Assembly: GCA_963744145.1 (NCBI GenBank)
Contig: CAVUSO010000001.1
Location: 5,600,001 to 5,664,000, forward strand
From: an uncultured cyanobacterium
Lineage (GTDB): Bacteria; Cyanobacteriota; Cyanobacteriia; Cyanobacteriales; CAWUOF01
Length of the DNA stretch: 64,000 nucleotides
Reading direction: 5' to 3'
Position numbers and translations under genes: made by a program. Numbering within the stretch: the stretch's first letter is position 1; each line of letters begins with the position of its first letter. The notes beneath the pieces are model-generated. The model saw nothing but the letters and a program-made list of their open reading frames with translations. It was not told where the DNA came from and did no database searches. Below are positions 4,375 to 27,411 of this stretch, one piece after another.

Positions 4375-4389
4375 CATTACCACTTTATT

Positions 4390-4830
4390 ATGACTATTTA
4401 TTTCTATAGTACCCGCGATCGCTATGGTTGCTTTTCTAACTTTTCCTCCCACGGATTTGAATTAGATGGACTCTATTGGGTAACGAGTGAACACTATTTT
4501 CAAGCCCAAAAATTTGTGGGAACACCTCATTTGGAAAAAATTCGACAAGCAAAAACCCCTAAAGATGCTGCCCAAATGGGACGCGATCGACAAAGACCTC
4601 TCCGTTCTGATTGGGAAGCAGTAAAAGATCAGATCATGTATCAAGCAGTGCTACGCAAATTTGCAACTCATCCAGATATTAGAGAAATACTGTTATCGAC
4701 AGAAGATGAAGAAATTGTCGAAAATTCTCCCATTGATTATTATTGGGGTTGTGGTGCAGATGGAAGTGGCAAAAATCGGTTAGGAGAAATCTTAATGTCG
4801 GTCAGAAAAACCTTACGTGAACACTTGTGA
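4390..4830 (+). CDS. NADAR (YbiA-like) family protein
   Basis: FSNFS, TSEHYFQAQKF, DYYWGCG and GKNRLGEILM motifs. Confidence 0.9.
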   Translation: MTIYFYSTRDRYGCFSNFSSHGFELDGLYWVTSEHYFQAQKFVGTPHLEKIRQAKTPKDAAQMGRDRQRPLRSDWEAVKDQIMYQAVLRKFATHPDIREILLSTEDEEIVENSPIDYYWGCGADGSGKNRLGEILMSVRKTLREHL

Positions 4831-4981
4831 GTTAGGCAAAAAAATGTTATTTTGTAAAAATAATTCAGTTTTTACCAAATTTATACGGATTAATCTAATT
4901 TCTACTCCAAGTTGTGGTATAGGTAAATAGAATAAGATGGCAAGCTCAATGTTCACGACTTGTAATAGAGATCAATAAATT

Positions 4982-5356
4982 ATGTCAACATTGTTTGAAA
5001 AGCTCGGTGGGTCTAATGCTGTTACCCTAGCAGTAGATAAGTTCTATGAGCGTGTATTGAATGATGAGCGAGTGAAGCACTTTTTTGTAGGGGTAGACAT
5101 GGCTAAACAAAAAGCTCATCAACGGGCTTTTTTGACCTATGCTTTTGGAGGAGCGGGGAAATATGATGGAAATACCATGCGTAAAGCTCATCAAAAGTTA
5201 GTAGAAGAACAAGGTCTAAGTGGAGAACATTTTGATGCGATCGCCGAAGATTTGATCGCAACTCTCCAAGAGTTAGGAATCCCTCAGAATTTAATTGATG
5301 AAGTAGCAGCAATTGCTGGGAGTCCGAGCCATCGTCGGGATGTACTTAATCAGTAA
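4982..5356 (+). CDS. glbN: Group I truncated hemoglobin (cyanoglobin)
   Basis: MSTLFEKLGG...FYERVL.D...QKAHQRAFLTYAFGG...MRKAH...HFDAIAE, closely resembling Synechocystis GlbN. Confidence 0.92.
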   Translation: MSTLFEKLGGSNAVTLAVDKFYERVLNDERVKHFFVGVDMAKQKAHQRAFLTYAFGGAGKYDGNTMRKAHQKLVEEQGLSGEHFDAIAEDLIATLQELGIPQNLIDEVAAIAGSPSHRRDVLNQ

Positions 5357-5442
5357 GTTTGGCTCTTGGTGAGAATGCTCGCGATCGCTCATCATCTTTG
5401 GTAGCGATCGGTATATTACTAAATATTAAAATCTAAAAGTTA

Positions 5443-5838
5443 TTAATTTGATTTACCATCACTACCAAAATACTCCCGATAAGCAGAAACTTGATTACCA
5501 CTAATATCAAAAGAAATAGCAATGCGATTTTTATATAGTTCTCCTCTCATTTTTCCTTCGTCACGAAACTCGAAAACAACTGTAGTCTCATTGCTAGTAA
5601 CTCGGTCTAAAGTTACCGATAGTCCCCCACTAAAAGTTTCCGAAACAAAACCTACAAATTCACGAAATTTATCTTTACCAACGTTTAAACCATGATATTT
5701 ACCCATGGGAAACCAAAAGGTAAAATCTTCAGTGAGCATATCTATAAACAAATTCCAGTTTCCTGTTTCTAACCCATGAGTAAAGTGAGTAAATGCTTGC
5801 TGACCAATTGCTAGGGTCTGCTGTTGTGATCCGGTCAT
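5443..5838 (-). CDS. NTF2/SnoaL-like protein
   Basis: 131 aa with LTEDFTFWFP, VVFEFRDEG, YKNRIAISFD and YREYFG patterns. Confidence 0.75.
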   Translation of the reverse strand: MTGSQQQTLAIGQQAFTHFTHGLETGNWNLFIDMLTEDFTFWFPMGKYHGLNVGKDKFREFVGFVSETFSGGLSVTLDRVTSNETTVVFEFRDEGKMRGELYKNRIAISFDISGNQVSAYREYFGSDGKSN

Positions 5839-6377
5839 GATTTTCTCAGTTTATTATTTTACCTATTTAAAATATCATACATTCTCGCGATCGCCCTTTT
5901 ACTTATTCTCAACTTGATTCTGTCTGGATACATTATGTAAACGCATAAATTTTTTATGAATGCACAAAGTGAGAGTTTTGTCAATTTTTTTTGATCAGCG
6001 TACTCTCGTAAAAATACGGATATATTAAGTTATTTAAATCATGAATAAGAGTCTAGTACCATATTATATTTCAGATCAAGACTAAAATTAGCATAACTTT
6101 AGTTAATGGATCGAAACCAAAAAATTAAATAAAAATTTATAAATTCTGATCGACTTTATTGTAGCAATAATAGCTAAAATAGGGTTATACTTTTGGAAGA
6201 GCAATGAAATTAAAGTCAGGGCTTGCCAAAAATGAAGTTTCGTAAAAGTAAGTTGAGGTAATTTGAAATTTTAAAAAAAAGTTAAATATGATTGCTAATT
6301 ACTTACTTTTGTAAAGAATATTGATGGCAAAAATATTTAATCCAAAAGTAAAGGAATCCGCAAAGCAGGAGATAAAT

Positions 6378-6743
6378 ATGAAACAGATTTTGGTGGTAGA
6401 TGATTCATCGACCATGCGTCGCATGGTGATGGCATCATTGCAAAATTTGCAAGATGTAAAGTTTGATCAAGCTAGCAATGGTTTAGAAGCAGTCGAACAA
6501 TTGGCCATGAAAGTATTCGATTTGATGATTCTCGACTTAAATATGCCGGAGATGCACGGTATGGATGTGCTTAAGTTTGTGCGTGAGCATAATAATTTTA
6601 AGCAAATTCCCATTATTGTACTCAGCACAAAAGGAGATAACTTTACCCAGATCACGGCTATTACTGCGGGGGCATCACACTATATGACTAAACCTTTTGA
6701 GCCACAAATTCTGGCGGAACAGGTCAAGGCTTTATTAGAATAA
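6378..6743 (+). CDS. cheY: Single-domain response regulator CheY
   Basis: ILVVDDS...LDLNMP...YMTKPF; AGGAG RBS precedes ATG 6378; first gene of the che operon. Confidence 0.88.
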   Translation: MKQILVVDDSSTMRRMVMASLQNLQDVKFDQASNGLEAVEQLAMKVFDLMILDLNMPEMHGMDVLKFVREHNNFKQIPIIVLSTKGDNFTQITAITAGASHYMTKPFEPQILAEQVKALLE

Positions 6744-6937
6744 ACAAAATCAATTCAAACATCATCACGCCAATGACCAGCAAGTGAGGTGAAGCGATCG
6801 CAGATAAAAATGCCAAAATCGGTGACTTGAGTTTGGGTAGATCCAAGTTCTTGCTGAATCAAAACAAGGTTGGGAGTGTTCACCAAGTAATTAGACAGCA
6901 AAAACTTGTGGAATGCAGAGGATTTATCGTAGTAGCT

Positions 6938-9118
6938 ATGGCGGAAACAAACAATTTTTTTGCTGAATTTCTTGATGATTACTTTGCGGAATGCGACGAA
7001 CATTTGACCCTAATCCGGCGCAACTTACTTGCTATTGATCACCAACTAGAAAAAGGAGAGATAGAACCACAAACTCTCGAAGAAATGCTGCGAAGCTTTC
7101 ACTCGCTTAAAGGATTATCAGGGATGGTAAGTGTTAAAGAAGCCGAGCAATTATCCCATCAAATCGAAAGCTATTTACGAGGACTGCGATCGCAAGAAAT
7201 CATCGTAAATACTGAGGGAATTAATATTTTAATAGCGGGCATCAAGATGCTAGAATTAGTCATCAATAATCGTCGCGCTAACCAACCTGCTCCCGATATT
7301 AACCCAGTTTTGGTCCAACTAGAAAAACTGTTCCCAAAACCAGCAGAAGAGTCAGGATTGATGCGCTCAGAGCCAATAGCTAGTCATCAATCTGATGCTG
7401 ATGCAATTGGACTCAGGGATGTGCTAACAACTATTACCCCAAAAATCCCAGAAATTGATTTTCAACTTTCCCCCCAAGAAACCCAGAAAATCGAAGCAGC
7501 GATCGCCCTAAAAGAACGAATTTTTCACTTTGAGTTTTCACCAATATCAGAGCGAGTTGAACAAGGGATAAACGTCAACAATATTCGGGCTCGGTTACAG
7601 TCGATCGGCACCATTATTCATGCAGCACCTCGGGTCAAATCTGGGGATGGAATAGTGTTTGATTTTTTAGTAGCAACTTCAGGAGAAGAAACCGATTTTG
7701 CCCATTGGAAACAAGACGGATTACTTTATGAAATTTGGCAAATAGCACCCCAAGCACAGCCCGAAAACATCAGCCAAAACAGCCAAAAAACCACCGGAGA
7801 ATTAGCATCAGAAACAGATTTTACCACCAACACAATTACTACTGAAATTACTAAAAAAACTGCTTCAGTAGCAAGCAACGTAGTTCGAGTAGATTTAGCG
7901 AGACTAGATGAACTCATGCGAATAGTTGGGGAATTAGTAATTAGTCGCGCTCGCTTAGAAGATCACATTAAAAATCTCGCAGCAACTCTCAATGTACCAC
8001 AATTACGACCCTTACGAGAAAGCAACCAAGCCATAGAAAGACAATTGCGAGATTTGCGATCGAGCGTCATGAGAGTACGTCTAGTGCCGATCGGAGAATT
8101 ATTTGCGCGGATGCAATTTGCTGTGCGAGATTTAGCCAGAGAAAATCACAAAAAAGTTGTGGTAGAAGTGAGTGGAGAACAAACAGAAATCGACAAATTT
8201 GTAGTCGAAAGGATGATTGATCCGCTCCTCCATTTAGTGCGAAATGCAGTTGGTCACGGGTTAGAAACAGAAGCAGAAAGGGTGCGTGGTGGTAAATCCC
8301 CCGAAGGGAAACTAACTTTACGAGCTTTAACCGCTGGAGAAACAGTCATAATTCAAGTTGAAGATGATGGTAGAGGAATTGATGCTCAAAAGATCACTGA
8401 ACGTGCGGTGAAATTGGGGTTAATGAATGAAACTGAAAGAAAAGCAGCTCTAACCGTTTTAACTGAAGATGGAAATCAGGAAATTTTAGGAGGATTATTA
8501 CAAACAACCATCCTCGATATTTTGTGCTATCCAGGTTTTTCAATTCGGGAAAAAGCTGATTTAACTAGCGGACGGGGAGTGGGGATGACGATCGTTAAAA
8601 ATACAGTCCAAGAATTAGGAGGAATGATTACTCTCAATACTCATCCCGATCTCGGTACTCGGTTTACCATTCAATTACCTTTAACCTTAGCCATAGCTGA
8701 TGCTTTAATAGTTACTGTTGGTGAACAAACCTTTGCTGTACCTGAATCATTAGTTTTAGAAGTGATCGATATTCGCTCTGAAAAAATTGTGGTTTTAGAA
8801 AATAACGAAATCATTTCCTATCGCCATAGTGTTTTGCCCATAATTAGTCTGAGTAAATTCTTTAACATCAACGCAACTGCCCAAAAACCAGGTTATGTAT
8901 TTGTGGTTGGTACTAGAAACAATAATGATCGTTATTGTCATCATCTGCTGGGAATCGGAGTCGATCGCATTCTCGGAATGCGGGAAATAGTTGTACTTCC
9001 TCTCACCGATCCTCTAGTGCAAGTTCCTGGTATTTCTGGAGCTACTGAATTAGGAGATAGACAGGTAGTTTTAATCCTTGATCCTGGGGCAATTGGCAAA
9101 ATTAAAATCCAAAATTAA
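6938..9118 (+). CDS. cheA: Chemotaxis histidine kinase CheA (no C-terminal receiver domain)
   Basis: Hpt RSFHSLKGLS, dimerisation VRVDLARLDELM, HATPase NAVGHG/DDGRG/SGRGVGM, C-terminal CheW domain; ATG 6938 is the likelier start than the track's 6827. Confidence 0.93.
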   Translation: MAETNNFFAEFLDDYFAECDEHLTLIRRNLLAIDHQLEKGEIEPQTLEEMLRSFHSLKGLSGMVSVKEAEQLSHQIESYLRGLRSQEIIVNTEGINILIAGIKMLELVINNRRANQPAPDINPVLVQLEKLFPKPAEESGLMRSEPIASHQSDADAIGLRDVLTTITPKIPEIDFQLSPQETQKIEAAIALKERIFHFEFSPISERVEQGINVNNIRARLQSIGTIIHAAPRVKSGDGIVFDFLVATSGEETDFAHWKQDGLLYEIWQIAPQAQPENISQNSQKTTGELASETDFTTNTITTEITKKTASVASNVVRVDLARLDELMRIVGELVISRARLEDHIKNLAATLNVPQLRPLRESNQAIERQLRDLRSSVMRVRLVPIGELFARMQFAVRDLARENHKKVVVEVSGEQTEIDKFVVERMIDPLLHLVRNAVGHGLETEAERVRGGKSPEGKLTLRALTAGETVIIQVEDDGRGIDAQKITERAVKLGLMNETERKAALTVLTEDGNQEILGGLLQTTILDILCYPGFSIREKADLTSGRGVGMTIVKNTVQELGGMITLNTHPDLGTRFTIQLPLTLAIADALIVTVGEQTFAVPESLVLEVIDIRSEKIVVLENNEIISYRHSVLPIISLSKFFNINATAQKPGYVFVVGTRNNNDRYCHHLLGIGVDRILGMREIVVLPLTDPLVQVPGISGATELGDRQVVLILDPGAIGKIKIQN

Positions 9119-9196
9119 CTGTGAAAAATCATTTTTGCCTCCGCTTTAATTTTGGATATTTTTATCAAAAGATTGGGTAAATTACGATGAATACAG

Positions 9197-9694
9197 TTGA
9201 GTCAAATTATGTTAAATCCTGACCATGCCCAAACTGAACAAACAACTTTCATTTTATTTGAGCTAGCAGATACCATCTATGGAATTCAGTCCCAAATAGT
9301 CCAACAAATGGAAATGGTAGAGAGAATTACCCCCGTTCCTAATACTCCCGACTTTGTGGAAGGATTAGTTTTTTCTCGCGGTCAAGTAATTCCAGCGATT
9401 GATTTGCGGGTAAGATTTGGATTTAAAAAAATACCTTACGATACCCGATCGCGGTTAATTGTCATTCATACCAGCAACCGGACTGTTGGATTAATCGCCG
9501 ATACAGCTAGAGAATTTGTGACCATTTCTAGTAATATTATTATGCCACCTCCCGAAGGAATTTCTGGATTAAGCAGCAAATATTTAGTCGGAGTAGCTAA
9601 TTTATCTGACCGTCTAATCTTGATTGTCAATCCGGCTGAATTAATCAATATTATAGAGCCAATATCATCAAGCATAAAAATCAGCTCAAACTAA
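9197..9694 (+). CDS. cheW: CheW coupling protein
   Basis: ITPVPNTPDFVEGLVFSRGQVIPAIDLRVRF. Confidence 0.92.
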   Translation: MSQIMLNPDHAQTEQTTFILFELADTIYGIQSQIVQQMEMVERITPVPNTPDFVEGLVFSRGQVIPAIDLRVRFGFKKIPYDTRSRLIVIHTSNRTVGLIADTAREFVTISSNIIMPPPEGISGLSSKYLVGVANLSDRLILIVNPAELINIIEPISSSIKISSN

Positions 9695-9709
9695 GGAGAA
9701 TCATTAACT

Positions 9710-11824
9710 ATGGCCATCATATTTGGAATTTTTTTCATCGCCATTTTAGGAATGGGAATATTTACGGTAGGCAATTTACGCAACAAAGTTAATCAAGAAA
9801 TTTCTCAAATGCGAGAAGAATCAAAACAATTAACTAAAACAGCCCAAGAAATTGCTCGGATTGCTGATGAAGTAAAAGTCGGTGGAGAGTCACAAATTCG
9901 CTCACTAGAAGAAACCGTCAACGGCACTAGCCAAATGACCAAATCCCTGCAAGAAACAGCAGCTCAAGCTGAAACAGTCACCACCTTATCCGAAGAATTA
10001 GTCGCAGCAGTCAACGAAATGGGAGCTTCGATCGAAGAAGTGACCAAAAACACCACCGACTTAGCTATGGGGATCAGTGAAACTGCCACAGCGATCGAAA
10101 CCTCATCATTATCAATTAAATCCTTGGCAATCAGTGCCCAGGAAATGGCAACTTCTTCCACCCAAGTCAGCACTTCCATTAACCAAATTGCTGCATCAAT
10201 TAAAAACCTTAATCGCGATACAGAAACTTTAGCTACTTCCATTAACGAAACAGCAGCTTCCGTAGAAGAAATGACGCGATCGATCCAAGGAGTAGCTAAC
10301 AATGCTGATGATTTAACCTCAGCTTCAGAACAAACAACAGCTTCGATGACAGAAATGGCTACCTCGATCGAAGAAGTATCAGCTACTACCGAAAACTTAG
10401 CTGGGATCGTGCAAGAAGTAGCAGGTTCAATGGAAGAAATGTCTTCCTCCGTCCAGGGGGTAGCGCAAAATGCTGATCGGATTACCAACGCTGCTACTAA
10501 TGCTGCTACTAGTGCTACCCAACTCGATCGCTCGATCCGTTCTGTGACCAATCTGACCAAACAAGCAACAGATATTACCCAGCGAGTCAGACGGGATGCG
10601 GAGGAAGGGGGAGCAACGGTTCAAAAAGCCATTAACGGTTTAGGTCGAGTCCGAGAATCGATGGTTCAATCAGCAGAAGTAATTCGGGAAATGGGTAAGC
10701 GTACCAATGAAATTAGCAGTATCGTCGATGCGATTAACCTAATTTCCGAGCGCACTAATTTATTATCTTTAAATGCTTCGATCGAAGCGGCTCGAGCTGG
10801 AGAAGCTGGACGCGGTTTTGCCGTAGTAGCTGAAGAAATTCGCAACTTAGCAGATCGAGCTGCCCAAGCAACCACAGATATTGCTAGTATTATCAAATCA
10901 TTGCAATCAGTAGTCAATGAAGCGGTATCTACTTCCAATGAAGGTGTGCGCGTAGCAGAAGAAAGCGGTAATTTAGCCGAAGCTGGTGTAAATGGCTTGA
11001 AAAAAATTCTTGATGGGATCGAAGAAACATCGCTATTAGTAGCTCAAATTAACCGTGCTTCTGAAGAACAATTACTCGCGGGTACTAATGTAGTTAATGC
11101 GGTCAATACTACAGCCAATCAGGCCAAAGAAGTAGCATTTGCTACCAATGAACAAGCAAAAACTGCCAACATGATCCTTCAATCGACCTTACAAACCCGG
11201 AAAGTAACCCAGCAAGTAACTATCGCCATGAATGAGCAAGCAAAAGCAGTTCGAGATGTCATGAAAGCCGCCCAAAACACGAACAATTTAGCTGGTCAAG
11301 TTCGCAAAGCTACCACCGAACAAGCTAATGGGATTAACCAAATTATGAAAGCTGTGGAAATTATGCGTAAGGGGGCAAATACTACTAGTCGAGCTTTGGC
11401 AGAACAAACTATAGCTGGAGAACAAATTACTCAAGCAACTAATCAGATGGCTAAGTTAGTTAACAGTGTTAGTAAAGAAATAGACCAACAAGCTGCTAAC
11501 GCTAATCAGATTACTAAATCAGCCGACAATATGCGCCGACAATCACAACAAGTTGCCCGGGCAATGACTGAACAAAGTCGGGCAGTTAAGGATATGTATG
11601 ATGTCGTGCAAAATGTAGCCAAACAAATTTCTTTGATTACTCGTTCTAATCGTGAACACTCTAGTATATCAGCTAAGATACTTAATTCGATCGCCGAGAT
11701 TCGGGTGATCACTGAGCGGAACTTTCAAGGAGTAAAAACCACTTTGCAATATACCGTTGATTTACTAGAACGGGCTCGAGTATTAACAGCAATTACCGAT
11801 CGCTTAAACGGTAACAGGAGCTAA
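9710..11824 (+). CDS. Methyl-accepting chemotaxis protein with one N-terminal TM helix and a very long coiled coil
   Basis: Hairpin tip [31 protein letters not shown]; many EE/EQ methylation-like pairs; no periplasmic sensor domain. Confidence 0.92.
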
Positions 11825-11880
11825 AAAAATTAGGAATGATCTAGCCTAATCGCCAATTAAAACCGATATCATTAATCACC

Positions 11881-14723
11881 ATGACTAACCAACCTGGAAT
11901 ATATATCTTTACAACTGATGCTCATCTCTTCGTATTATCTTGGGATAGCAATCTAGCCCAAGTAACACAAATACCAACTCAGGTCGCCTGTGGTCAACAG
12001 CTAACAGCACTGATTCCCGACTTAGCACAGCGAGGTTTACTGGCAAGATTTGAACGAGTTTTGACCCAAGGGGTCATAGAAACTTTAGCACCAGCATTTC
12101 ATCATTATCTAATTCCCTGTCTCCCACCAACCGGAGCTAAATATTTTGACAAAATGCAACAAAGGGTAACTATTACCCCCCTGCGAGAGGGAAACGATCT
12201 ATTGGATAATTCCAGCAAACGTATTACTGGCATCATTGTTACCATCGAAGATGTCACTGCTCGGTTAGAAAAAGAACGGGATTTAGCCGCACAATTGGCT
12301 AGCCCGAACGAAAGCGATCGAGTCAGAGCCGCTCAGGAACTGGCTAATACCCAAAGCTCAGACCCAATTGAAGTCCCAACAACTCCAGAAAAATCTCCGT
12401 TAATGTTAGCTTTGGGAAACGAAAGTTGGCGAGTGCGTCAGATTGTGGTAGATAACCTAGCAGTCAAAGCCGATCCTAGCACCACGGCAATGTTGCTGCG
12501 AACCCTACGGGAAGAACATCGCAATCTCAGTGTTTTAAATAGCACATTGCAAGTATTAGCCCTGAGTAATATCGATGTAGTCGCACCCTTAATTGAATTT
12601 TTGCAAGATCCCGATGAAGAATTGCGAACTTACGCAGCTTTGGCTTTAGGCGATCGCCAAGATCCCCGGTCGGTTCCTGCTCTGATTGTCGCAGTCCAAT
12701 CCGATCCAGATATAAATGTGCGCTATCACGCGATCGAAGCTTTAGGTAAACTACACCCACCCGAAGCTACGGAAGCTTTACTCGCGATCGCCCTATCCCG
12801 AGATTTTTTCCTGGGCTTTCCGGCGCTAGATGCTTTAAGGCAAATTGGTGATACTAGCATTGCCCCTCGGTTAGTCCCCTTACTCGCAGATCGGTTACTT
12901 TGTTCCCCGACCGCAGTCGCTTTAGGATTACTAGGTGATCAAGAAGTCGTTCAGCCTTTAGTCCAGTTGCTCAATCAAGTCAATGCACCGACCAGAGCGA
13001 TCGCCCAATCCTTAGCTGCTTTATATCACCGCTATGAAAACTTGTACGGAGAAGGGCCTCATATTAGTGATTTATTTCAAGAAAGTGTGACCCTGAATGG
13101 CTGCCAAAATCTCCTAGATAGCCTATCTGTGGCAAATCCAGAAGAACTCAAAAGTCTGGTATTGTTATTGGGCTGGGTAGATAACCAGGAATGTGCCAAA
13201 GCACTCACCCGTTTACTCAGTGAACCCGCCGTTCGTAAAGAAGTAGTAGAAGCTTTAGTACGTTATGGCGAAGGTGTCAGCGAACTATTAATAGAGCAAT
13301 TAGAATCCCAGGATTTAGAAACCAGATCAGCCGCCATCGTTGCCCTGGGACGGATCGGCGATACTCGCTCAGTTGGGATTTTAATCAAATTATTAAAAGT
13401 AGATCCAGAATTATCGATCGCCGCAGCTAATGCTTTAGCCCGGATTGGCGATCGTTCCGCTTTTACCCCCCTCTTAAATTTATTGGGACACCAAGATGCG
13501 GGAGTCCGTCAAGCAGCGATCGCTGCTTTGAATTCTCTCGGGCATCCTGATATGCCCCAACATTTACAGACCCTATTGCGGGATGAAAGTGCTTATGTGC
13601 GCGAGTCAGCGGTGAAAATAGCTGGCTATTTTGCTTTTACAGAATGCTTAGAACTGTTTTTACAATCTTGTCAAGATCCGGATGAACGAGTCCGACGGGC
13701 AGCGATCGAACATTTGCCTTATGTGACTGAAGACGAACAGGAAATTCTCCCGATTTTGGCCGCCGCCCTGGCCAGAGAAACTCCCAACGTGCGAGCCGCC
13801 GCCACCCGAGTTTTAGCTCAGATTAATGCTAATCTGGCTTTTCCCTATCTGAAAACCGCGATCGCCGATGCTGATCCTTGGGTTCGTTATTATGCAGCTC
13901 GTTCCATGGGTATACATGGCTATCCGGAAGCTCTGGAGGATTTGGCGCATCTAGTCCAAAGAGATCCAGCCCATCAAGTCCGAGCCGCTGCTGTGGAAGG
14001 ACTGGGGCGCATTGGGAGTATCCGGGCGGTCACGATTCTGGCTCCATTAGTCCTCGGATTGGCCCAAAGAGGTAGCGATGATGGTGAACTAACTCGGACA
14101 GCAATTCGCGCTCTGGGAAATATCGGACATCCCGATGCGGTGCCATTATTACTGAATGTATTGCGATCACCTCTGGCCCACGCCGCATTGATGCCTGTAT
14201 TGCTTTAGGAGAAAGAGGTGGACAACAAGCTGTGGATGCTTTGCAATGGATCGCCGGCTCTGATCCCGATCCCCAAGTGGTGCAAGCGGCGATCGAAGCG
14301 TTAGCGCAAATGTGTAGTTCCGAGTCGATCGCTGCACTAATCGAACTGATTGCCGATCACCAGCGTGTTAATGCTTGTATTGCTGTGCTGGTGCGTCTCA
14401 ATAGTCAACCTCTTGTGGCTTTGGAACAGCAAATCGAATGGATTGGGCGGGGTTTACATCATCCCCATGCTGGAGTGCGTTGTGGTGTGATCGAAATTCT
14501 CACCCGTCTCAAACATCCCCATGCTTCCGAATTACTGATTTCTGCTCTTGGAGATCAGGATGCTTCTGTACGTCTCTATGCGGTGCGCTCTCTCAAACAC
14601 TTGGGCAATCGTTATGCCCAAGAGCAACTCTCTTCCTTAGCCCGAAATGACCCCGATGCTGCTGTTCGTCGTGCCGCCCAAAAGGTGCTGCAAACGCAAT
14701 TTCTCCCCTTCAATCAATCATAG
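11881..14723 (+). pseudogene. PAS-like plus HEAT-repeat (PBS-lyase-type) protein of about 950 aa, split by one frameshift near 14170-14180
   Basis: ORFs 11881-14208 and 14232-14723 join through the shifted frame PRRIDACIALGERGGQQAVDAL; repeated D.D..VR..A..ALG HEAT units; N-terminal PAS-like segment ending IIVTIEDVT. The frameshift could be a sequencing indel. Confidence 0.8.
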
Positions 14724-15006
14724 CAAATGAGGATTTAGGATTCCTCACTTGTTAACGCTGAATTGATTATATATGAGCAAGAATAAATCGGCAAAGTGCA
14801 ACTCTAGTCAAGAAAATTAAGGATTTTCTTTGGCTACTGATGCTAGTTTGAAAATGCCATATTTCTCTCTTGACTTGATCACTCTGAGTAGTTAGTAAGC
14901 CTGCCGCAATTTTAATGCTCGAATGTTCCCTAATGACTGGTTAATTAATCACTCATTACCCAAAACTAACTTGGATTTCTAAAAACCTTAAAAATGCGAG
15001 TCAAAA

Positions 15007-15846
15007 ATGCGAATTCCGGAACGAATTAATTTATCTGATAATATATTTATGATCTTGCGAGATTTGATTCATGAACGCACAGGAGTATATTATGATAGCA
15101 GCAAGCATGATATTTTAGCAGATCGACTTTCCCCACGTTTATTTGAACAAGGTCTTGATTCTTTTTTAGACTACTACTATTTGCTCAAATACGATTTAAA
15201 AGCTGAAGAAGAATGGAAATATGTAGTCGATGCTCTGGCGGTACTAGAAACTTTTTTTTATCGAGAATTTGATCAAATCCAAGCTCTGGTAGATGTATTA
15301 GTACCAGCATATTTTGCTCGTAACAGTAAAGAAACTTTACGGATTTGGAGTGCTGCTTGTGCGACTGGAGAAGAACCCCTAACGATCGCTATAGCACTGA
15401 ATGAAGCAGGCTATTTTCATCGTTTTCCAATTGAAATTTATGCGACTGATGCTAGTAATAAAGCCATTTTAAAAGCTAAACAAGGAATTTATCGTGAACG
15501 CTCTTTTCGCAATTTTTCGGTGGAATTACGATCAAAATATTTTCAAGAAATTGAACCAGGAAATTGGCAAATATACCCAGAAATATTCAATAAAATTAAA
15601 TGGGGAACAGTGAATTTGATTGTCCCATCTCAAGTTAATCTATTTGCTAATTCATCGATGATATTTTGCCGAAATGTCTTTATCTATTTTTCGGAAAAAG
15701 CCATTCGCCAAACGGTCAAATTATTTGCTGAAAAAATGCCTGTGCCGGGGTATTTATTTGTCGGTGCTTCTGAATCTCTATTAAAATTAAGCAATGATTT
15801 TACCTTACAAGAAATTAATGGAGCATTTGTATATGTAAAAAACTAA
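15007..15846 (+). CDS. cheR: Protein-glutamate O-methyltransferase CheR
   Basis: ETFFYRE, RIWSAACATGEEP and IFCRNVFIYF motifs. Confidence 0.95.
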   Translation: MRIPERINLSDNIFMILRDLIHERTGVYYDSSKHDILADRLSPRLFEQGLDSFLDYYYLLKYDLKAEEEWKYVVDALAVLETFFYREFDQIQALVDVLVPAYFARNSKETLRIWSAACATGEEPLTIAIALNEAGYFHRFPIEIYATDASNKAILKAKQGIYRERSFRNFSVELRSKYFQEIEPGNWQIYPEIFNKIKWGTVNLIVPSQVNLFANSSMIFCRNVFIYFSEKAIRQTVKLFAEKMPVPGYLFVGASESLLKLSNDFTLQEINGAFVYVKN

Positions 15847-16057
15847 AAATGAATTTTTTTCAAAAATTAATGTGAATTTGGTTGACTAATCTGTATAATT
15901 AACTTAGGTAAAGTTTTTTGAGTGACTCTAGTTTATACTAGCTTAACCCAAAACTAAAAATCAACTCTAATATCGCCGCAATGTGGGGTTTAATTTGTTA
16001 GTAAAGTACCCTACAGAATAAGGAAAAAATAAGTAAAAACATAACCAGGATAAAAAA

Positions 16058-17107
16058 ATGGAGCAAGTTTTACGGGTTTTAGTAGTAGATGATTCTGCAT
16101 ATATCCGTAAGGTAGTCAAGCAAATGCTATCTCGTAGTCCTTTTATCGAAGTGGTGGGTACTGCTCGTGATGGGCAGGAAGCATTAGAACTGGTGTCACA
16201 GCTCAAACCGGACGTAGTAACATTAGATTTAATTATGCCCAATATGGATGGGGTGCAGTTTTTGCAGAAGCAGATGGCAGAACAACCAATTCCAGTTGTG
16301 GTAGTAAGTATTGCGAGTGAGGGTGGTGAACAAGCGTTAGCTGCTCTAGACGCAGGAGCAGTTGATTTTGTCCAAAAGCCAACCGCATTAGCAACCGAAA
16401 AGATTTTTGAAATTAGCGATGAATTAATCGAAAAAGTTAAAGCTGCTGCTCAGGTGCCTCTGATGCGTCTACCTACTATGCCCCCACCGGAACCAAAATT
16501 ACCTGCTGCTTTGCTATTTACTAACCGTCCCAAAATCGATCTAGTGGTTTTAGGTATTTCCACAGGAGGTCCCCAAGCCTTGAGTTATCTAATTCCCCAA
16601 TTCCCAGCTAATTTACCGATTCCGATCGCCATAGTTTTACATATGCCGGTGGGCTATACAGAAATGTATGCTCATCGATTAAATGAAATGTCAAATCTGG
16701 AGGTAGTGGAAGCTAGTCAAGGTGATGTACTACGTCCGGGAACGGTATTTATTGCTCCTGCTGGACGACATTTAACTTTTATCCGTCAAGCAAATGGTCA
16801 AGTGATCACTCATCTCGATGCTCGTCCCTTCGATACTCTGCATCGTCCTAGTGTTGATGTCATGTTTCAATCAGCCGCAGAAGTATTCGGCGATCGAGTT
16901 TTAGGTGTAGTGATGACAGGAATGGGATCAGATGGCAAACAGGGTGCGGCTTGGATTAAATCTCATGGTGGTACAATTTTTACCGAAGCTGAGGAAACTT
17001 GTGTGGTCTATGGAATGCCCCGTTGTGTAGTCGAAGCCAATTTGAGTGACAAAATTGTGCCCTTACAAGAAGTCACATCAGCTATTCTCGCCCAATTGTC
17101 ATTGTAG
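16058..17107 (+). CDS. cheB: Protein-glutamate methylesterase CheB (receiver plus esterase)
   Basis: GISTGGP, HMP, RPSVD, MTGMGSDG and VVYGMP motifs. Confidence 0.95.
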   Translation: MEQVLRVLVVDDSAYIRKVVKQMLSRSPFIEVVGTARDGQEALELVSQLKPDVVTLDLIMPNMDGVQFLQKQMAEQPIPVVVVSIASEGGEQALAALDAGAVDFVQKPTALATEKIFEISDELIEKVKAAAQVPLMRLPTMPPPEPKLPAALLFTNRPKIDLVVLGISTGGPQALSYLIPQFPANLPIPIAIVLHMPVGYTEMYAHRLNEMSNLEVVEASQGDVLRPGTVFIAPAGRHLTFIRQANGQVITHLDARPFDTLHRPSVDVMFQSAAEVFGDRVLGVVMTGMGSDGKQGAAWIKSHGGTIFTEAEETCVVYGMPRCVVEANLSDKIVPLQEVTSAILAQLSL

Positions 17108-17235
17108 CAATTTGATCTAGGGATAGTTTCAATAACCAGCTGCCATGGAAAGCATTGCCTGTTGATCTCGAAGATTTGCTAGTGGTGCTTTCTGACAGTT
17201 GTTGTTATTCAAGCTCATGGTAAAAGGAGTTTTTC

Positions 17236-17895
17236 ATGTTAATTAGCGATCGCCAAAAATCTGCTCTTACCCTGCTAATTAAAATGGCATTTTCTCGAGT
17301 TAATGAAACTTCACTGGCTGATTTAGTTGGTGCTCCTATTGTCATTAAAATGTCGGAAATTTCCCTTTGTCCAGTCAGCAGAATGACTGAAGAATTTGCC
17401 CTGTTGTTTCCGGAAGAGATCATTAGTGTCCACCAAAGTTTTACTGGCTATATGTCAGGGGATGCCCTGTTGATATTTGATTATTGTAATGCGCTCAGAC
17501 TGATCAATTTAATTGACAAAAATCATGAGTTACCCCGGAATTATATCGATACAACAGCGCGTGATATGCTGATTGAAATCGGCAATATCTTATTAAATAA
17601 TTATTTGGGTATATTAACTAATTGGTTGCAAATTCAAATGTCTTTTACTGTGCCTTCTTTACAGGTAAATTTATTATCTGAGCTGATCAATTCTTTGATA
17701 GTTGGGAAAAATGAATTGCGCTATTGTTTAGTAACACCAGCAACTTTTTATCTTGATGATCAAGTAATTAATGCTAATCTAAATCTCGTTTCTGGTGTGG
17801 TGTCTCTCCACATTTTAATTAAGGCGATCGAAATCTGGGCTGATCTAACTAATGTTTCTTCTGCCAAAATGAACCAAGAATTTAGATTTGACTAA
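17236..17895 (+). CDS. cheC: CheC-like phosphatase-family protein
   Basis: DMLIEIGNILLN (D-x3-E-x2-N) motif; the first repeat motif is degenerate; lies at the operon end. Confidence 0.65.
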   Translation: MLISDRQKSALTLLIKMAFSRVNETSLADLVGAPIVIKMSEISLCPVSRMTEEFALLFPEEIISVHQSFTGYMSGDALLIFDYCNALRLINLIDKNHELPRNYIDTTARDMLIEIGNILLNNYLGILTNWLQIQMSFTVPSLQVNLLSELINSLIVGKNELRYCLVTPATFYLDDQVINANLNLVSGVVSLHILIKAIEIWADLTNVSSAKMNQEFRFD

Positions 17896-18090
17896 AAATT
17901 AGACCCCTGACCAAAATCACGGTAGATCGAGATCTTGTCTGTCCCACCGCAAGTCTGGGTTGATGGTGGGACAGTGCTACGGTGAACTTTTGCCAGAATT
18001 CTCATGTACATAAAGTGGTAAAGTTGGCGCACAAGCGCTACTACATACCTAGTGCTATTAATTACTGGCGATCGCACCAAAGGAGATGGG

Positions 18091-18750
18091 ATGATTAGCT
18101 TCCCACAAATCTTAATGCGCTTAATGTCTGCGTTCGTGCTGACGGGATTAATTGGGTTAGAGCGTTCCACCCACGATCGCGCTAGTGGTTTTCGGACTCA
18201 CATTCTAGTAGGATTAGGTTCAGCGCTGATTACCTTGACTTCTATCTATGGTTTTCCACCTAATCAGGTTGGTAATGCTGATCCAGCTCGTCTCTCGATT
18301 CAAATTGTCTCGGGCATTGGATTTTTAGGAGCAGGTGCGATTCTACGCTATGGGATGTCAGTTCGAGGACTAACTACAGCCGCGAGTCTCTGGACTTCTG
18401 CTGGACTTGGAATTGCTTGTGGGACTGCTTTTTATTTACCAGCGATCGTGACTACTCTATTAGTCATCATTACTCTCAGACCTTTGGAGAGATTGGAGTC
18501 CCAACTAGAAATCGGATCAGGAGGTCATCGCATTTGGATTTATACCAATCGTCATGAGACGAGCTTAGAAGTAGTCCAAAAGCATTTAGATAAATTTCCT
18601 TTAATCCTCAAAAGAATTGAAGTTACTTTTGATGAAGAGGGAAACCAATTAATCACACTGTCATTGATGAAAAGAATGCCGACGGGGATGTTAATTGTCC
18701 TGCTAGAAGATTTAGCCGCTTTACCTGGGATTAAAAAAGTAGAGGTTTAA
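18091..18750 (+). CDS. MgtC/SapB family membrane protein
   Basis: IGLER...GFRTH...DPARL..QIVSGIGFLGAG...GLTTAASLW; AGGAG RBS before ATG 18091. Confidence 0.9.
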   Translation: MISFPQILMRLMSAFVLTGLIGLERSTHDRASGFRTHILVGLGSALITLTSIYGFPPNQVGNADPARLSIQIVSGIGFLGAGAILRYGMSVRGLTTAASLWTSAGLGIACGTAFYLPAIVTTLLVIITLRPLERLESQLEIGSGGHRIWIYTNRHETSLEVVQKHLDKFPLILKRIEVTFDEEGNQLITLSLMKRMPTGMLIVLLEDLAALPGIKKVEV

Positions 18751-18751
18751 A

Positions 18752-20488
18752 ATGTATCCACCATCTCGAAATTCCAAAGTCAAATTTCGCCCTCAGTGGG
18801 GTGTACCTGATTTGGTTTTTTTGCTGATTTTATTTCTCGTGATCTTGGCAATTATCAAAACTGCTTCTAATTTTGGTGGTCATTATGATACTAATTTAGT
18901 CGAAATTGAAACTACTCCTAATGTCTTACCAGCCTACGCAGCTCAAACTTTGTTGCGGATGGTGAGTGCTTATATAGTATCCTTAGTTTTTACTTTGGTA
19001 TATGCCTATTCAGCTTATCGCTCTCGGGCCGCAGAAATGATTCTAATTCCTTTATTGGATATATTGCAATCAATTCCGGTTTTATCATTTTTACCAGGCG
19101 TAGTTCTAGCTTTAATTGCCTTATTTCCAGGTCAAAGAATCGGGGTAGAATTAGCATCAATTGTGCTAATTTTTACAGGGATGACTTGGAACATGACTTT
19201 TAGTTTTTATCAGTCGCTGCGAAGTATCCCACGCGAATTAAAAGAAGCAGCTAGTATTTATAGACTTAATCTTTGGCAAAGATTTTGGAATTTAGAATTA
19301 CCCGTTGGTGTCATTGGTTTAGTCTGGAATAGTGTCATGTCAGTTGCGGGTGGTTGGTTTTTTTTAATGGCGATCGAATCTTTTACGTTAGGAGAACAGA
19401 AGTTTAATTTACCTGGATTAGGTTCTTATTTAGCTAAAGCGGCTGATAAGGGAGACTATGGAGCAATTGGATGGGGATTAGCAGTTTTAATTGGCATTAT
19501 TATTGCCATTGACTTCTTCATCTGGCGGCCATTGATTAGCTGGGCAGAAAAATTTAAAATGGAAATGGTAGAAGCCCAAAATACTCCCCAATCTTCTGTA
19601 TTAGATTTTCTGCGCCGATCGCCAACTTTAAGAGTTTTGAGTGACAAGCTTTTCAAGCCTTTACAAAAAAATATGGATCATGTTTTTATTGAAGCTTTTC
19701 CCCTCCGAGCTGGATCAACTAAAAGCGCAGAGTTTGAATGGGGAAAATGGTTAACCTATGTGTGCTTATTTGGATTTGGTATTCTCGTTTTTTGGGGAAT
19801 GGGCGAAGCATGGCAAATGCTGCAAACCTTAAACCTCCAAAATTGGCAAACCATAGTATTAAGCGCAATCATCACAGCTTTGCGGGTAATTATTGCCTTA
19901 ATTCTTTCCCTAGCATGGACTGTCCCAGTGGGAGTAAGTATTGGGAGAAATCCGAAATTATCTCAATTATTACAACCGATTGTGCAAATTGCTGCTTCTG
20001 TACCAGCAACTGCCCTATTTCCACCTTTACTATTATTATTAATTAAGGTTGGTGGTGGCTTAGAAATTGGTTCGGTGGCACTAATGATGTTAGGCACAAT
20101 GTGGTATATCCTCTTTAATGTGATTGCTGGTGCCCAATCAATTCCTGAAGATTTGTTAGAAGCTGCTCGGATTTATAAGTTATCTCTATGGCAGCGTTGG
20201 GAAACCATTATTCTCCCTGGAATATTTCCCTATTTAATCACGGGCATAATTACCGCTGTAGGCGGAGCATGGAATGCTAGTATTGTTAGTGAATACGTCA
20301 ATTTTCAAGGACAAACCATTGCTGCACCAGGATTGGGAGCGCTAATTTCTGAAGCAACAGCAAAAGGAAATTTTGATGTCTTATTAGCATCAACAATGGT
20401 CATGTCTTTTTTAGTGGTACTCACGAATCGCTTAGTTTGGCGTCCACTTTACCGATTAGCCCAAGAGAAGTATCAACTGTTACTATAG
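18752..20488 (+). CDS. NitT/TauT-type ABC transporter double permease
   Basis: Two EAA loops (ELKEAASIY, DLLEAARIY), LQSIPVLSFLPG and many TM helices. Confidence 0.88.
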   Translation: MYPPSRNSKVKFRPQWGVPDLVFLLILFLVILAIIKTASNFGGHYDTNLVEIETTPNVLPAYAAQTLLRMVSAYIVSLVFTLVYAYSAYRSRAAEMILIPLLDILQSIPVLSFLPGVVLALIALFPGQRIGVELASIVLIFTGMTWNMTFSFYQSLRSIPRELKEAASIYRLNLWQRFWNLELPVGVIGLVWNSVMSVAGGWFFLMAIESFTLGEQKFNLPGLGSYLAKAADKGDYGAIGWGLAVLIGIIIAIDFFIWRPLISWAEKFKMEMVEAQNTPQSSVLDFLRRSPTLRVLSDKLFKPLQKNMDHVFIEAFPLRAGSTKSAEFEWGKWLTYVCLFGFGILVFWGMGEAWQMLQTLNLQNWQTIVLSAIITALRVIIALILSLAWTVPVGVSIGRNPKLSQLLQPIVQIAASVPATALFPPLLLLLIKVGGGLEIGSVALMMLGTMWYILFNVIAGAQSIPEDLLEAARIYKLSLWQRWETIILPGIFPYLITGIITAVGGAWNASIVSEYVNFQGQTIAAPGLGALISEATAKGNFDVLLASTMVMSFLVVLTNRLVWRPLYRLAQEKYQLLL

Positions 20489-20511
20489 TCTTAGTAGTTA
20501 ATCAGTAGCAT

Positions 20512-22796: not shown

Positions 22797-22797
22797 T
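22690..22797 (+). repeat. 108-bp direct repeat, copy 1 (3' end of gene 22173-22796)
   Basis: Identical to 24091-24198 except for 2 substitutions. Confidence 0.95.
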
Positions 22798-22918
22798 ATT
22801 GGTAAGAAGATGCCCCAAAGAACGGCAAAATCAGTTTTTGTCCATTAGTGATAAGTTAAGGTGATAGGTAAATTATCAAGAGCGGTTGAACTAGCTGCAA
22901 ACTTGGAGTGAATTCCAG

Positions 22919-26450: not shown

Positions 26451-26590
26451 GGTGTGGGTGGGGAGAGTTTATTCGAGTTCATAACACTGGGCGCTGTTCT
26501 TAAGAATCAAGTTCGCTACTTTTGGGAGAATTCGAGGATGTAATCCAAACTAGCCCAAGTTTTGACTGGGATGACACTACCGATGAGGTT

Positions 26591-26686
26591 GGGTGCATCT
26601 CATATTTGCAAATTTATCAATCAGGTAACGAAAAACAAGCATTTCAGCCTCCTGTTTCAAGGTTTTTGCAAAACTGAGATGCACCC
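26591..26686. mobile_element. 96-bp MITE
   Basis: TIR GGGTGCATCTCA / TGAGATGCACCC; 9-bp TSD GATGAGGTT at 26582-26590 and 26687-26695. Confidence 0.9.
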
Positions 26687-27385: not shown

Positions 27386-27411
27386 ATGTTTATGGATCAA
27401 AACTATGTAGA

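Follow-up and report, generated by a model that had tools for sequence, protein, structure and literature searches.

A cyanobacterial copy of a multi-phylum chemosensory cassette, genetically coupled to a PAS-HEAT protein as its likely target or scaffold

Among the closest described systems is the Che7 system of Myxococcus xanthus, for which the published gene table lists CheY7 (MXAN_6965), CheA7 without a receiver (6964), CheW7 (6963), Mcp7 without HAMP (6962), a gap at 6961, CheR7 (6960), and CheB7 (6959) (Moine, 2014; PMC3945109). The accessible text of a further paper ties a HEAT-repeat protein to this system (PMC9040617), and the title of Darnell (2014), together with the papers citing it, presents the HEAT protein Cpc7 as the regulated party with CheY7. 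Arthrospira platensis NIES-39 contains an eight-gene cluster (NIES39_A07840-A07910) with cheB, cheC, and cheR and without patA, and HEAT is unmentioned in the accessible part of that report (PMC2853384). The cluster of Limnospira indica PCC 8005 is listed as cheC1, cheB1, cheR1, a 1091-aa HEAT-repeat protein, a chemotaxis-related protein, cheW1, cheA1, and cheY1, with no gene between cheB and cheC in the numbering given; according to the accessible text, it is known from transcript data only, four of its genes being induced by gamma irradiation (PMC8400943). Cyanobacterial type IV pilus taxis systems contain PatA-type regulators and a hybrid CheA with a fused receiver and lack CheR and CheB (in part after PMC2853384).

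The window (the whole 64,000-nucleotide stretch of DNA that was analysed) contained cheY-cheA-cheW-mcp-HEAT-cheR-cheB-cheC in this order at 6378-17895. All eight genes, which the earlier note had listed, were recovered on the + strand by ORF calls and Pfam and NCBIfam matches (Table 1), and the domain E-values of the cassette genes lie far beyond chance expectation. As judged from the sequence, the signalling core (MCP, CheW, and a receiver-less CheA) is complete and is accompanied by the adaptation enzymes CheR and CheB, by a CheY that stands alone, and by a protein of CheC type. The cyanobacterial host given in the earlier note is confirmed by an ApcE-type linker protein encoded in the window (38171-40888), with three PBS-linker domains and a phycobilisome domain in Pfam.

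Table 1. Features of the chemosensory cassette, in window coordinates.
Feature	Coordinates	Strand	Evidence
Promoter-like site upstream of cheY	6263..6292	+	TTGAAA-18-TATGAT, 10/12 matches; weak lead only
cheY, single-domain response regulator, 121 aa	6378..6743	+	Pfam Response_reg E 2.3e-27
cheA, Hpt + H-kinase_dim + HATPase_c + CheW domains	6938..9118	+	Pfam
cheW, coupling protein	9197..9694	+	Pfam CheW E 4.1e-28
mcp, 704-aa receptor	9710..11824	+	Pfam MCPsignal E 1.8e-41, residues 288-468
PAS-HEAT gene	11881..14723	+	Two ORFs, 11881-14208 (775 aa) and 14232-14723 (163 aa); HEAT_2 E 2.9e-81 in the first
cheR, receptor methyltransferase, 279 aa	15007..15846	+	Pfam CheR E 9.5e-45, CheR_N E 8.2e-8
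cheB, receiver + methylesterase, 349 aa	16058..17107	+	CheB_methylest E 9.6e-60, Response_reg E 1.7e-24
cheC-like gene, 219 aa	17236..17895	+	NCBIfam CheC E 2.8e-12, under the cutoff of the model

The ATG of cheY is preceded by an AGGAG motif, and residues D8, D9, D53, T84, and K105 of its product are conserved among orthologues. The cheA frame (6827-9118) is open from a TTG at 6827, but the true start is probably the ATG at 6938 (M38, beginning 'MAETNNFFAEFLDDYF'), because homologues align only from residue 40-47 of the TTG-start product onward. The mcp gene has an AAGGAG motif 11 nt upstream of its ATG. Residues 285-455 of the receptor align gap-free to Thermotoga maritima TM1143 (2ch7), with the hairpin tip near residue 359, and 28 E/Q pairs were counted. 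The domain scan detected no recognised sensor domain or HAMP in the receptor, and its N-terminus, on which the earlier note was silent, forms a hydrophobic anchor (mean hydropathy 2.62 in a 19-residue window at residue 2) that is absent in 8/8 relatives of other phyla (maxima 0.80-1.41 by the same measure). The NCBIfam score of CheB was 384.9 bits, above the model cutoff of 293.

The cheC-like gene, which the earlier note had called cheC, encodes a protein with the fold and family profile of CheC, although one of its catalytic motifs, overlooked there, is degenerate. The motif that Park et al. in 2004 reportedly gave for the CheC active site is D/S-x3-E-x2-N-x22-P. Motif 2 is intact (D110-x3-E114-x2-N117-x22-P140), whereas in motif 1, L13 and K16 replace E and N; both motifs are kept in 6/6 relatives, and motif 1 is degenerate in the window protein only. 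The structural model (pLDDT 82) had CheC 1xkr as its top fold match (E 4.6e-14, TM 0.77/0.81), with CheX lower (TM 0.48), and the family profile matched T. maritima CheC (1xkr/2f9z) with E 3.1e-19. The protein thus has fold, profile, and one complete motif in common with the CheC/FliY/CheX family, but differs from T. maritima-type CheC in its first motif and in a Pfam CheC match (E 0.11) below threshold. It would probably dephosphorylate CheY-P through the one active-site motif that is intact. No CheD gene was linked to the cassette in the window. The cassette also had no desaturase gene, which presumably follows che7 in M. xanthus.

Both M. xanthus Che7 (MXAN_6959-6965) and the window cassette have the same gene order and a receiver-less CheA built from Hpt, dimerisation, ATPase, and CheW-like domains, and both receptors lack HAMP and have the signalling domain in mid-protein. 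The tabulated M. xanthus lengths are close to those of the window (CheY 125/121, CheA 683/726, CheW 148/165, CheR 273/279, CheB 348/349; PMC3945109, gene table). The putative orthology with Che7 is based on gene order, domain make-up, and these tabulated lengths, and the Che7-like architecture proposed in the earlier note held on all of them. Unlike Che7, the window cassette adds the CheC-like phosphatase, and its receptor is anchored, whereas Mcp7 is listed without transmembrane segments (PMC3945109, gene table). The Limnospira cluster, as listed, contains the same eight genes as the window, including the HEAT gene (PMC8400943), and its CheA (P0049) falls in the same cyanobacterial clade as the window CheA with about 49% identity. 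The HEAT protein of Limnospira and Arthrospira (about 1100 aa) is a longer form with extra N-terminal sequence.

Cassettes of Acidobacteriota, Chloroflexota, and Gemmatimonadota (L001, L002, L005, L008, L010, and L081) have a cheY-to-cheC order identical to that of the window, with identities of 49-56% for MCP, 41-51% for HEAT, 61-66% for CheB, and 31-41% for the CheC-like protein; the CheY proteins of other phyla are 50-59% identical to the window CheY. In contrast to the window, these six loci contain a second CheY (CheY2) between cheB and cheC, a CheC with both motifs, and a soluble receptor, and they often end in a PAS-HisKA-HATPase-REC kinase; CheY2 and the PAS kinase were both absent from the window. 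A CheY2-like gene was found in 8/8 relatives whose DNA extends past cheB, in one case weakly and at an upstream position. In Limnospira, too, the published gene numbering leaves no place for a gene between cheB and cheC (PMC8400943), so the absence of CheY2 is probably characteristic of the lineage.

Same-class CheA occurred in 17 named cyanobacterial records, and CheA and HEAT homologues were common in many filamentous cyanobacteria. Seven CheA/HEAT protein pairs each came from contigs of equal size in bp, three of them under cyanobacterial names: Oscillatoriaceae SKW80 (24,480 bp), Hormoscilla (57,045 bp), and Planktothrix serta (360,395 bp, named from the HEAT record). Closely related CheA genes marked 11 loci, nine of which include DNA after mcp; the HEAT gene lies directly 3' of mcp in eight of the nine (Acidobacteriota L001, L002, L008, and L010; Chloroflexota L004, L005, and L009; Gemmatirosa L081), with L007 as the exception. 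Only three of the other 70 loci had a HEAT match. The cassette is therefore nothing out of the ordinary: it belongs to a type that is already in print, though still poorly understood, and that occurs widely among filamentous cyanobacteria and soil bacteria. The rarity among cyanobacteria implied by the earlier note is not supported, in view of these homologues and of the A. platensis and L. indica clusters as published (PMC2853384, PMC8400943). Phylogenetic analysis, proposed there as a check, placed the cassette CheA in a HEAT-linked clade (support 100), with PixL-named and cyanobacterial hybrid kinases far outside. Within it, the cyanobacterial CheAs formed one clade (SH-aLRT 98), and an AU test did not reject reciprocal monophyly of cyanobacterial and other-phyla CheAs (p 0.083), so that an ancient transfer may have occurred, in either direction. 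The recent horizontal acquisition suggested in the earlier note is not supported on compositional grounds, because the GC3 of the cassette genes (0.225-0.44) falls inside the span seen for the remaining genes of the window (0.20-0.42) or slightly exceeds it.

The HEAT repeats named in the earlier note were present, but it had missed that they belong to a PAS-HEAT gene and that this gene is split by a one-base frameshift at about 14175-14178. Alignment to P0274, a homologue of 939 aa (84% identical), covers its residues 1-766 in one reading frame and then switches to a different one for residues 766-939, and the second frame, when read upstream of 14232, carries on a HEAT repeat; unbroken homologues are 890-940 aa or about 1100 aa long. 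The first 135 residues adopt a PAS fold (model pLDDT 89.8; PAS matches with E 3.8e-6).

CheY was predicted to dock on residues 183-343 of the HEAT protein with a score of 0.80 (best of three controls, 0.00), which is the model's own confidence; the presence of designed alphaRep binders in the PDB might bias docking toward HEAT surfaces. The threshold was passed by 116/157 solved complexes and 2/215 mismatched pairs, a rough calibration in which own alignments were used. The three runs shared at least 87% of contacts, with a pLDDT of at least 85 for the HEAT partner. Predicted contacts on CheY (residues 10-22, 54-63, 84-90, and 105-109) lie around D53, T84, and K105, and those on the HEAT side include W183 and F313, two invariant residues of the family. 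This controlled prediction supports a CheY-HEAT contact. Among 39 relatives of the HEAT part in the PDB, there is none for which a receiver domain is named as partner. In Halobacterium salinarum, a HEAT_PBS protein was reportedly found with CheY, CheC, and CheD interactors; it is likewise a PBS-lyase-type HEAT protein with Che proteins, but in an archaeal, flagellar (archaellum) taxis system.

These results suggest, with a probability of roughly 60%, that the locus is a cyanobacterial copy of a multi-phylum chemosensory cassette whose core is genetically coupled to the PAS-HEAT protein as likely target or scaffold and not to a motor. The membrane-anchored, sensor-less receptor would form a very long coiled-coil hairpin and, with CheW, control CheA, which would pass phosphate to D53 of CheY and to CheB. 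CheR and CheB would reset the receptor by methylation of many E/Q pairs, and the CheC-like protein would strip the CheY phosphate via its single intact motif. The phosphorylation-site face of CheY would dock on the first HEAT repeats, and this docking would make the PAS-HEAT protein the target or scaffold of the pathway. The prediction matches, by analogy, the M. xanthus CheY7-Cpc7 report as conveyed by the title of Darnell (2014) and its citing papers. A non-motility output is plausible, with a response to stress or in development more probable than the steering of motility.

A true taxis function, in which the cassette would steer filament gliding or type IV pilus motility with a methylation memory, CheY acting on the motility machinery and the HEAT protein being accessory, appears unlikely. 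In its favour, temporal gradient sensing in motile cells is typically marked by CheR, CheB, and a phosphatase of CheC type, and the named carriers of the cassette are mostly gliding filamentous cyanobacteria. Chemotaxis was suggested for the Arthrospira clusters (Fujisawa, 2010; PMC2853384, accessible part), induction of the Limnospira cluster was interpreted by its authors as an escape response (PMC8400943, accessible part), and a review excerpt describes a Nostoc punctiforme cheR mutant with lost motility and poor Blasia colonisation (PMC10095879), although that gene may not be of the same cassette. In contrast, deletion of an N. punctiforme cheB/cheR/cheA/cheW/MCP locus, which also may not be the same cassette, left hormogonia, motility, and phototaxis unaffected according to the available text (Warshan, 2018; PMC5913679). 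Both the type IV pilus systems Pix/Tax1, Hmp, and Ptx and the window combine CheY, CheW, MCP, and a CheA-family kinase in a non-flagellated phototroph; however, the hybrid CheA of those systems has a fused receiver, whereas no Response_reg domain was found by Pfam in the window CheA, as the earlier note had claimed. All 52 longer CheA relatives contained a fused receiver and were at most 35% identical, and the cassette CheA is far from PixL (P0399, so named, lies on a distant branch) and from ChpA-type kinases. Furthermore, the Pfam scan of window ORFs yielded no PatA, PilZ, or pilus gene linked to the cassette, and the absence of a PATAN/PatA-type regulator, already noted, held among the 48 ORFs scanned (16 of at least 80 aa and 32 of at least 100 aa; outside this set are five ORFs of 100 aa or more that are nested in or overlap others, at 9964-10560(-), 19738-20046(+), 51972-52289(-), 56354-56860(-), and 59497-59865(+)). 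The gene conserved next to the Che core across phyla is the PAS-HEAT gene, on whose product CheY is predicted to dock.

Given its PAS domain, the HEAT protein might instead sense something: the PAS domain would perceive a cytoplasmic signal, the HEAT solenoid would feed the receptor array or tune CheY phosphorylation, and the true target of CheY would lie elsewhere in the genome. The lack of a sensor domain in the receptor and the good conservation of the PAS domain favour this role, as does a PAS-containing histidine kinase that ends the cassette in 4/8 relatives with DNA beyond cheB (L001, L002, L007, and L010 by Pfam; L081 would be a fifth by a tblastn match only); the kinase PAS of L001 and L002 shares about 30% identity with that of the window HEAT protein. 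Phosphatases and CheA P1 engage CheY by its active-site face. Because the predicted contact is on this face, the HEAT protein could modulate CheY phosphorylation and not serve as a downstream effector. On the other hand, L009 keeps the HEAT gene without the PAS part, and both the title of Darnell (2014) and citing papers cast the M. xanthus HEAT protein as the one that is regulated; we consider an input role decidedly improbable.

The pathway may be impaired in the window genome by the HEAT frameshift, the loss of CheC motif 1, and the absence of CheY2 and the PAS kinase, and two intergenic gaps (283 and 211 nt) are unusually long where the genes of relatives abut, but outright decay is very unlikely: 7/8 genes are intact with conserved catalytic residues, the 775-aa product retains the PAS domain and the repeats of the predicted CheY contact, the frameshift, which is in a short C run of a single 7.63-Mb contig, may stem from misassembly, out-of-frame overlaps recur elsewhere in the window, and the missing CheY2 is probably shared with Limnospira as listed (PMC8400943).

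The promoter-like match upstream of cheY is no evidence of function, since the region contained 19 such sites against a mean of 28.3 in shuffled sequence. Out-of-frame overlaps were seen in two further ORF pairs of the window, and for one of these pairs Pfam domains suggest a single split gene.

The segment 6378-17895 contained, on the + strand, all eight genes of the order cheY-cheA-cheW-mcp-HEAT-cheR-cheB-cheC that the earlier note had read from it (see table). The start of cheA was probably the second of the two positions listed, because homologues align from residue 40-47 only. Pfam assigned only Hpt, H-kinase_dim, HATPase_c, and CheW domains to CheA, which confirmed that it has no fused receiver. 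Likewise, no PatA-type regulator or other PATAN-type protein was found among 48 window ORFs scanned by Pfam (five nested or overlapping ORFs of >=100 aa were left out). In contrast, the Pix, Hmp, and Ptx loci combine a PATAN-receiver regulator of the PatA type with a hybrid CheA whose C-terminus carries a receiver, and neither was seen among the scanned ORFs. The gene order of the window is the same as that of Myxococcus xanthus Che7 along the numbering MXAN_6965 to MXAN_6959, compared here by tabulated description, and the domains tabulated for CheA7 are those of the window CheA, again without a receiver (PMC3945109, in part).

Positions of the cassette genes, of the cassette extension in related loci, and of other features
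Feature	Position	Strand	Remark
cheY	6378-6743	+	AGGAG motif 5' of ATG
cheA	ORF open from TTG 6827; probable start ATG 6938	+	homologue alignment
cheW	9197-9694	+	
mcp	9710-11824	+	
HEAT-repeat gene	from 11881	+	
cheR	15007-15846	+	
cheB	16058-17107	+	
219-aa cheC-like gene	17236-17895	+	
Second CheY, CheC-like gene, PAS kinase (L001)	17499-20178		
Same extension (L002)	19292-21896		
Same extension (L010)	19209-21799		
Same extension (L007)	16322-19115		
Same extension (L081)	21158-23312		
Receiver + CheC/CheX-like fusion, 320 aa (L005, Anaerolineae)	9888-10850		
HEAT-repeat gene (L012, Thermodesulfovibrionales)	15852-17855		HEAT gene just 5' of cheR
HEAT-repeat gene (L027, Acidobacteria bin)	12943-15293		HEAT gene just 5' of cheR
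IS4-family transposase	25167-26384	-	
BamHI-family restriction endonuclease	26792-27385		
N6/N4 DNA methylase	27412-28389	-	
Small HTH protein	28434-28781	-	
ApcE-type phycobilisome core-membrane linker	38171-40888	-	three PBS-linker domains + phycobilisome domain

Phylogenetic analysis of CheA was based on a FastTree tree of 97 rows and a quick IQ-TREE tree (LG+C20) of 52 rows, neither of which included an M. xanthus sequence, and 10 of 81 CheA sequences were excluded as fragments of <500 aa. The window CheA was located inside the clade of all HEAT-linked CheAs in both trees (support 100), and the cyanobacterial rows formed one group inside this clade (support 98-99). A PixL-named CheA (P0399) and a cyanobacterial hybrid CheA (P0404) were placed together outside it on a branch of length 2.23, and all 52 longer CheA relatives carried a fused receiver and were <=35% identical. 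Given this distance and low identity, the window CheA does not group with the cyanobacterial type IV pilus systems, a placement that the earlier note had named as speaking against its reading.

In the unconstrained tree, the cyanobacteria were nested among Acidobacteriota, Chloroflexota, and Gemmatimonadota with supports of 90-98. Forcing the 10 non-cyanobacterial rows, a group chosen post hoc, to be monophyletic cost 30.3 log-likelihood units and was not rejected (p-AU 0.083). The GC3 of the cassette was ordinary for the window, which rules out composition as a signal of recent transfer; the HEAT gene owes its high GC to first codon positions. Horizontal acquisition by this organism, as proposed earlier, is thus not supported as a recent event. 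An ancient transfer between phyla, in one direction or the other, is likely.

A search with CheA returned 120 listed matches, of which 20 were organism-labelled proteins, 17 cyanobacterial and three from Acidobacteriota. The cyanobacterial carriers included Crinalium, Scytonema, Aulosira, Planktothrix, Limnospira, Phormidium, Hormoscilla, Stenomitos, Aphanothece, and others, and the listed matches were ~46-54% identical to the window CheA, except one at 74%. The HEAT protein search yielded the same mixture of taxa plus Chloroflexi, and seven CheA/HEAT protein pairs were found on contigs of equal size, down to 12.7-24.5 kb. The genome scan revealed no cyanobacterial locus among the best 80 loci listed and no M. 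xanthus locus among the matches listed; synteny in cyanobacteria therefore rests on the equal-sized contigs and on two publications. Che clusters without patA and with cheB, cheC, and cheR were described for Arthrospira platensis (PMC2853384, in part), and all eight genes, including the HEAT-repeat protein, were listed for Limnospira indica (PMC8400943, in part). The cassette is thus widespread in cyanobacteria and was noted there earlier, and the rarity implied by the earlier note is not supported.

Eleven loci with a closely related CheA were available for comparison, namely 10 among the best 80 genome-scan loci and a Gemmatirosa locus (L081) from a plasmid search with CheA, which yielded no cyanobacterial plasmid. 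The PAS-HEAT gene was located directly 3' of mcp in 8 of the 9 related loci with DNA past mcp, and the order cheY-cheA-cheW-mcp-HEAT-cheR-cheB was likewise shared by 8 of 9. Any HEAT match occurred in only three of the other 70 loci among the best 80 listed. A second CheY was carried by all eight relatives with enough DNA (one weak, upstream pair counted), normally 3' of cheB and 5' of the cheC-like gene. In at least four relatives (L001, L002, L007, and L010), the next gene after the cheC-like one encoded a histidine kinase with a PAS domain. A receiver was fused to this kinase in L001, L002, and L010; the L007 kinase contained GAF and no receiver, and the L081 kinase was detected by tblastn only. 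The kinase PAS domain was ~30% identical to that of the window PAS-HEAT protein (L001 and L002 compared). Neither the second CheY nor the PAS kinase was found in the window, and by gene numbering cheB adjoins cheC in Limnospira too (PMC8400943, in part). In L005, a fusion protein stood where the PAS kinase is found elsewhere. Two further loci, L012 and L027, had a HEAT-repeat gene next to cheR and a CheA outside the main clade, and HEAT-Che coupling may therefore extend beyond this family.

The HEAT-repeat gene was interrupted in the window. Its closest homologue (P0274; 939 aa, 84% identical) aligned with residues 1-766 to 11881-14178 and with residues 766-939 to 14175-14696 in a different frame, and the second frame, read 5' of its first start codon, extended a HEAT repeat. 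Compared with intact homologues, one base was missing in a short C run (14175-14178), leaving ORFs of 775 and 163 aa. Both HEAT halves shared one reading frame in all five related loci where both were detected, and intact homologues have 890-940 aa, or ~1100 aa in some Oscillatoriales. PAS-HEAT is, by these alignments, one gene that is split in the window. The break could reflect either a true mutation or a fault of the assembly; the 775-aa form is on record as such, on a 7.63-Mb contig. Two other pairs of window ORFs overlap in different frames. By their Pfam domains, a Kelch/glyoxal-oxidase N part followed by a GO-like E-set C part, ORFs 60320-61729 and 61671-62267 seem to belong to a single gene, and ORFs 49387-50388 and 50345-52303 have a Pfam match in the downstream ORF only. 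Both pairs may be further frameshifts with the same origin as the PAS-HEAT break.

The first 135 residues of PAS-HEAT were predicted to form a PAS fold (pLDDT 89.8; PAS, LOV, and FixL-type matches from E 3.8e-6), which was kept in 20 of 21 aligned HEAT homologues. No cofactor could be assigned to this domain, as the motif FHHYLIPC was not invariant and the fold matches covered many PAS types. The Gemmatirosa locus was excluded from the alignments for fold and complex prediction.

Complex prediction for CheY and the 775-aa PAS-HEAT protein, with one alignment for each and three controls, gave a score of 0.80, compared with 0.00 for the best control. At least 87% of contacts were shared between the runs, with a partner pLDDT of at least 85. 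Of the solved complexes, 116 of 157 score at or above the pass mark, as do 2 of 215 mismatched pairs; both counts are only rough here because user-made alignments were employed. In the predicted complex, CheY touches HEAT residues 183-343 with its surface around D53, T84, and K105. Designed alphaRep binders might have biased the model towards HEAT docking. A pass from model memory is unlikely, since no receiver is named as a partner for any of 39 PDB structures related to the HEAT part. The prediction supports, short of proof, binding of CheY to PAS-HEAT. Che7 of M. xanthus is likewise said to be coupled to a HEAT-repeat protein, reportedly in work by Darnell in 2014. The predicted contact agrees with such a coupling as described for Che7 elsewhere (PMC9040617, in part). 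The Che7-like reading of the earlier note has support from the architecture and from the predicted contact; the rarity of such a locus in cyanobacteria is not supported.

The 219-aa protein at the end of the cassette was not called CheC by Pfam alone (E 0.11), and the NCBIfam CheC model matched it with E 2.8e-12, under the model cutoff. A profile of seven family members matched T. maritima CheC (E 3.1e-19), and the best PDB match to the AlphaFold model (pLDDT 82, pTM 0.81) was CheC 1xkr (E 4.6e-14, TM 0.77/0.81), with CheX clearly lower. The gene product is, by these NCBIfam, profile, and structure matches, CheC-like, and its model has the pseudo-twofold alpha/beta sandwich of the CheC fold. 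Proteins of the CheC/FliY type carry two copies of the motif D/S-x3-E-x2-N-x22-P. The second copy was complete in the window protein (D110, E114, N117, and P140); the first was degenerate, with L13 and K16 in place of E and N and the proline absent. Both copies were present in all six relatives. With only motif 2 intact, the window protein is a single-site CheC-like protein.

No HAMP and no sensor domain were detected by Pfam in the receptor, the mcp start codon of which is preceded by a good AAGGAG motif. The hairpin tip was located near residue 359, with arms of ~340 residues and 28 E/Q pairs. Around the tip, 170 residues align gap-free to T. maritima TM1143, an alignment that does not fix the receptor class; pathways of the ACF class have been detected in Cyanobacteria and Chloroflexi (PMC3447774, in part). 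The N-terminus was strongly hydrophobic, with a mean hydropathy of 2.62 versus maxima of 0.80-1.41 in eight relatives from other phyla (L010, with a fragmented receptor, was excluded).

Because the predicted contact is on the active-site face of CheY, the HEAT protein may be either an effector that reads phosphorylation or a modulator of phosphorylation. A fuller reading, which as a whole has a probability of roughly one in five, would make PAS-HEAT the conserved effector dedicated to an adaptation-competent module common to Cyanobacteria, Acidobacteriota, Chloroflexota, Gemmatimonadota, and Myxococcota. CheY would dock by the face around its phosphorylation site, so that the HEAT solenoid would read the phosphorylation state directly and might also shield it. 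Cyanobacteria would have rebuilt this module, with the receptor anchored in the membrane, a CheC of one site, and the second CheY missing, for the control of stress or differentiation and not of movement; one candidate output would be remodelling of light harvesting by a NblB/CpcE-like HEAT protein.

In Limnospira indica, gamma irradiation induced cheA1, cheB1, cheC1, and cheW1 (PMC8400943, in part). Deletion of a cheB/cheR-containing locus in Nostoc punctiforme left motility and phototaxis intact (PMC5913679, in part), and a cheR mutant of this species, according to a review, lost motility and showed less colonisation of Blasia (PMC10095879, in part); either Nostoc locus may or may not correspond to this cassette. 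Beyond these cited works, no study addressing the function of the cassette in a cyanobacterium was found, most subscription journals being outside the coverage. The locus represents a further copy of a cassette that is widespread and already noticed, and it has lineage-specific features in its anchored receptor, single-site CheC, missing second CheY, and split, possibly broken, HEAT gene. The gain from this window alone is modest. Chemosensory pathways independent of a motor are frequent in genomes and poorly understood, and to our knowledge Myxococcus Che7 is the only HEAT-coupled one studied genetically. If CheY acts on PAS-HEAT, the cassette would provide a conserved, simple example of a repeat-protein scaffold under the control of a single-domain response regulator, and cyanobacteria would gain a methylation-adapting sensory pathway.

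The gaps before cheR (14724-15006, 283 nt) and cheB (15847-16057, 211 nt) were unusually long, whereas both genes abut or overlap the preceding genes in relatives. No RNA family and no convincing signal were found in these gaps; an Rfam scan of the window gave no match, and promoter and terminator scans did not yield more than chance. Upstream of the cassette (1610-5838), genes for a phosphonate-type binding protein, a HAMP histidine kinase, a NADAR protein, a truncated-globin family protein, and a SnoaL-like protein were located. The host is a cyanobacterium, as the window encodes an ApcE-type linker, and the closest named relatives of the cassette genes were Oscillatoriales-like. Elsewhere in the window (25167-28781), a BamHI-family endonuclease was clustered with a DNA methylase and a small HTH protein, and an IS4-family transposase adjoined these genes.
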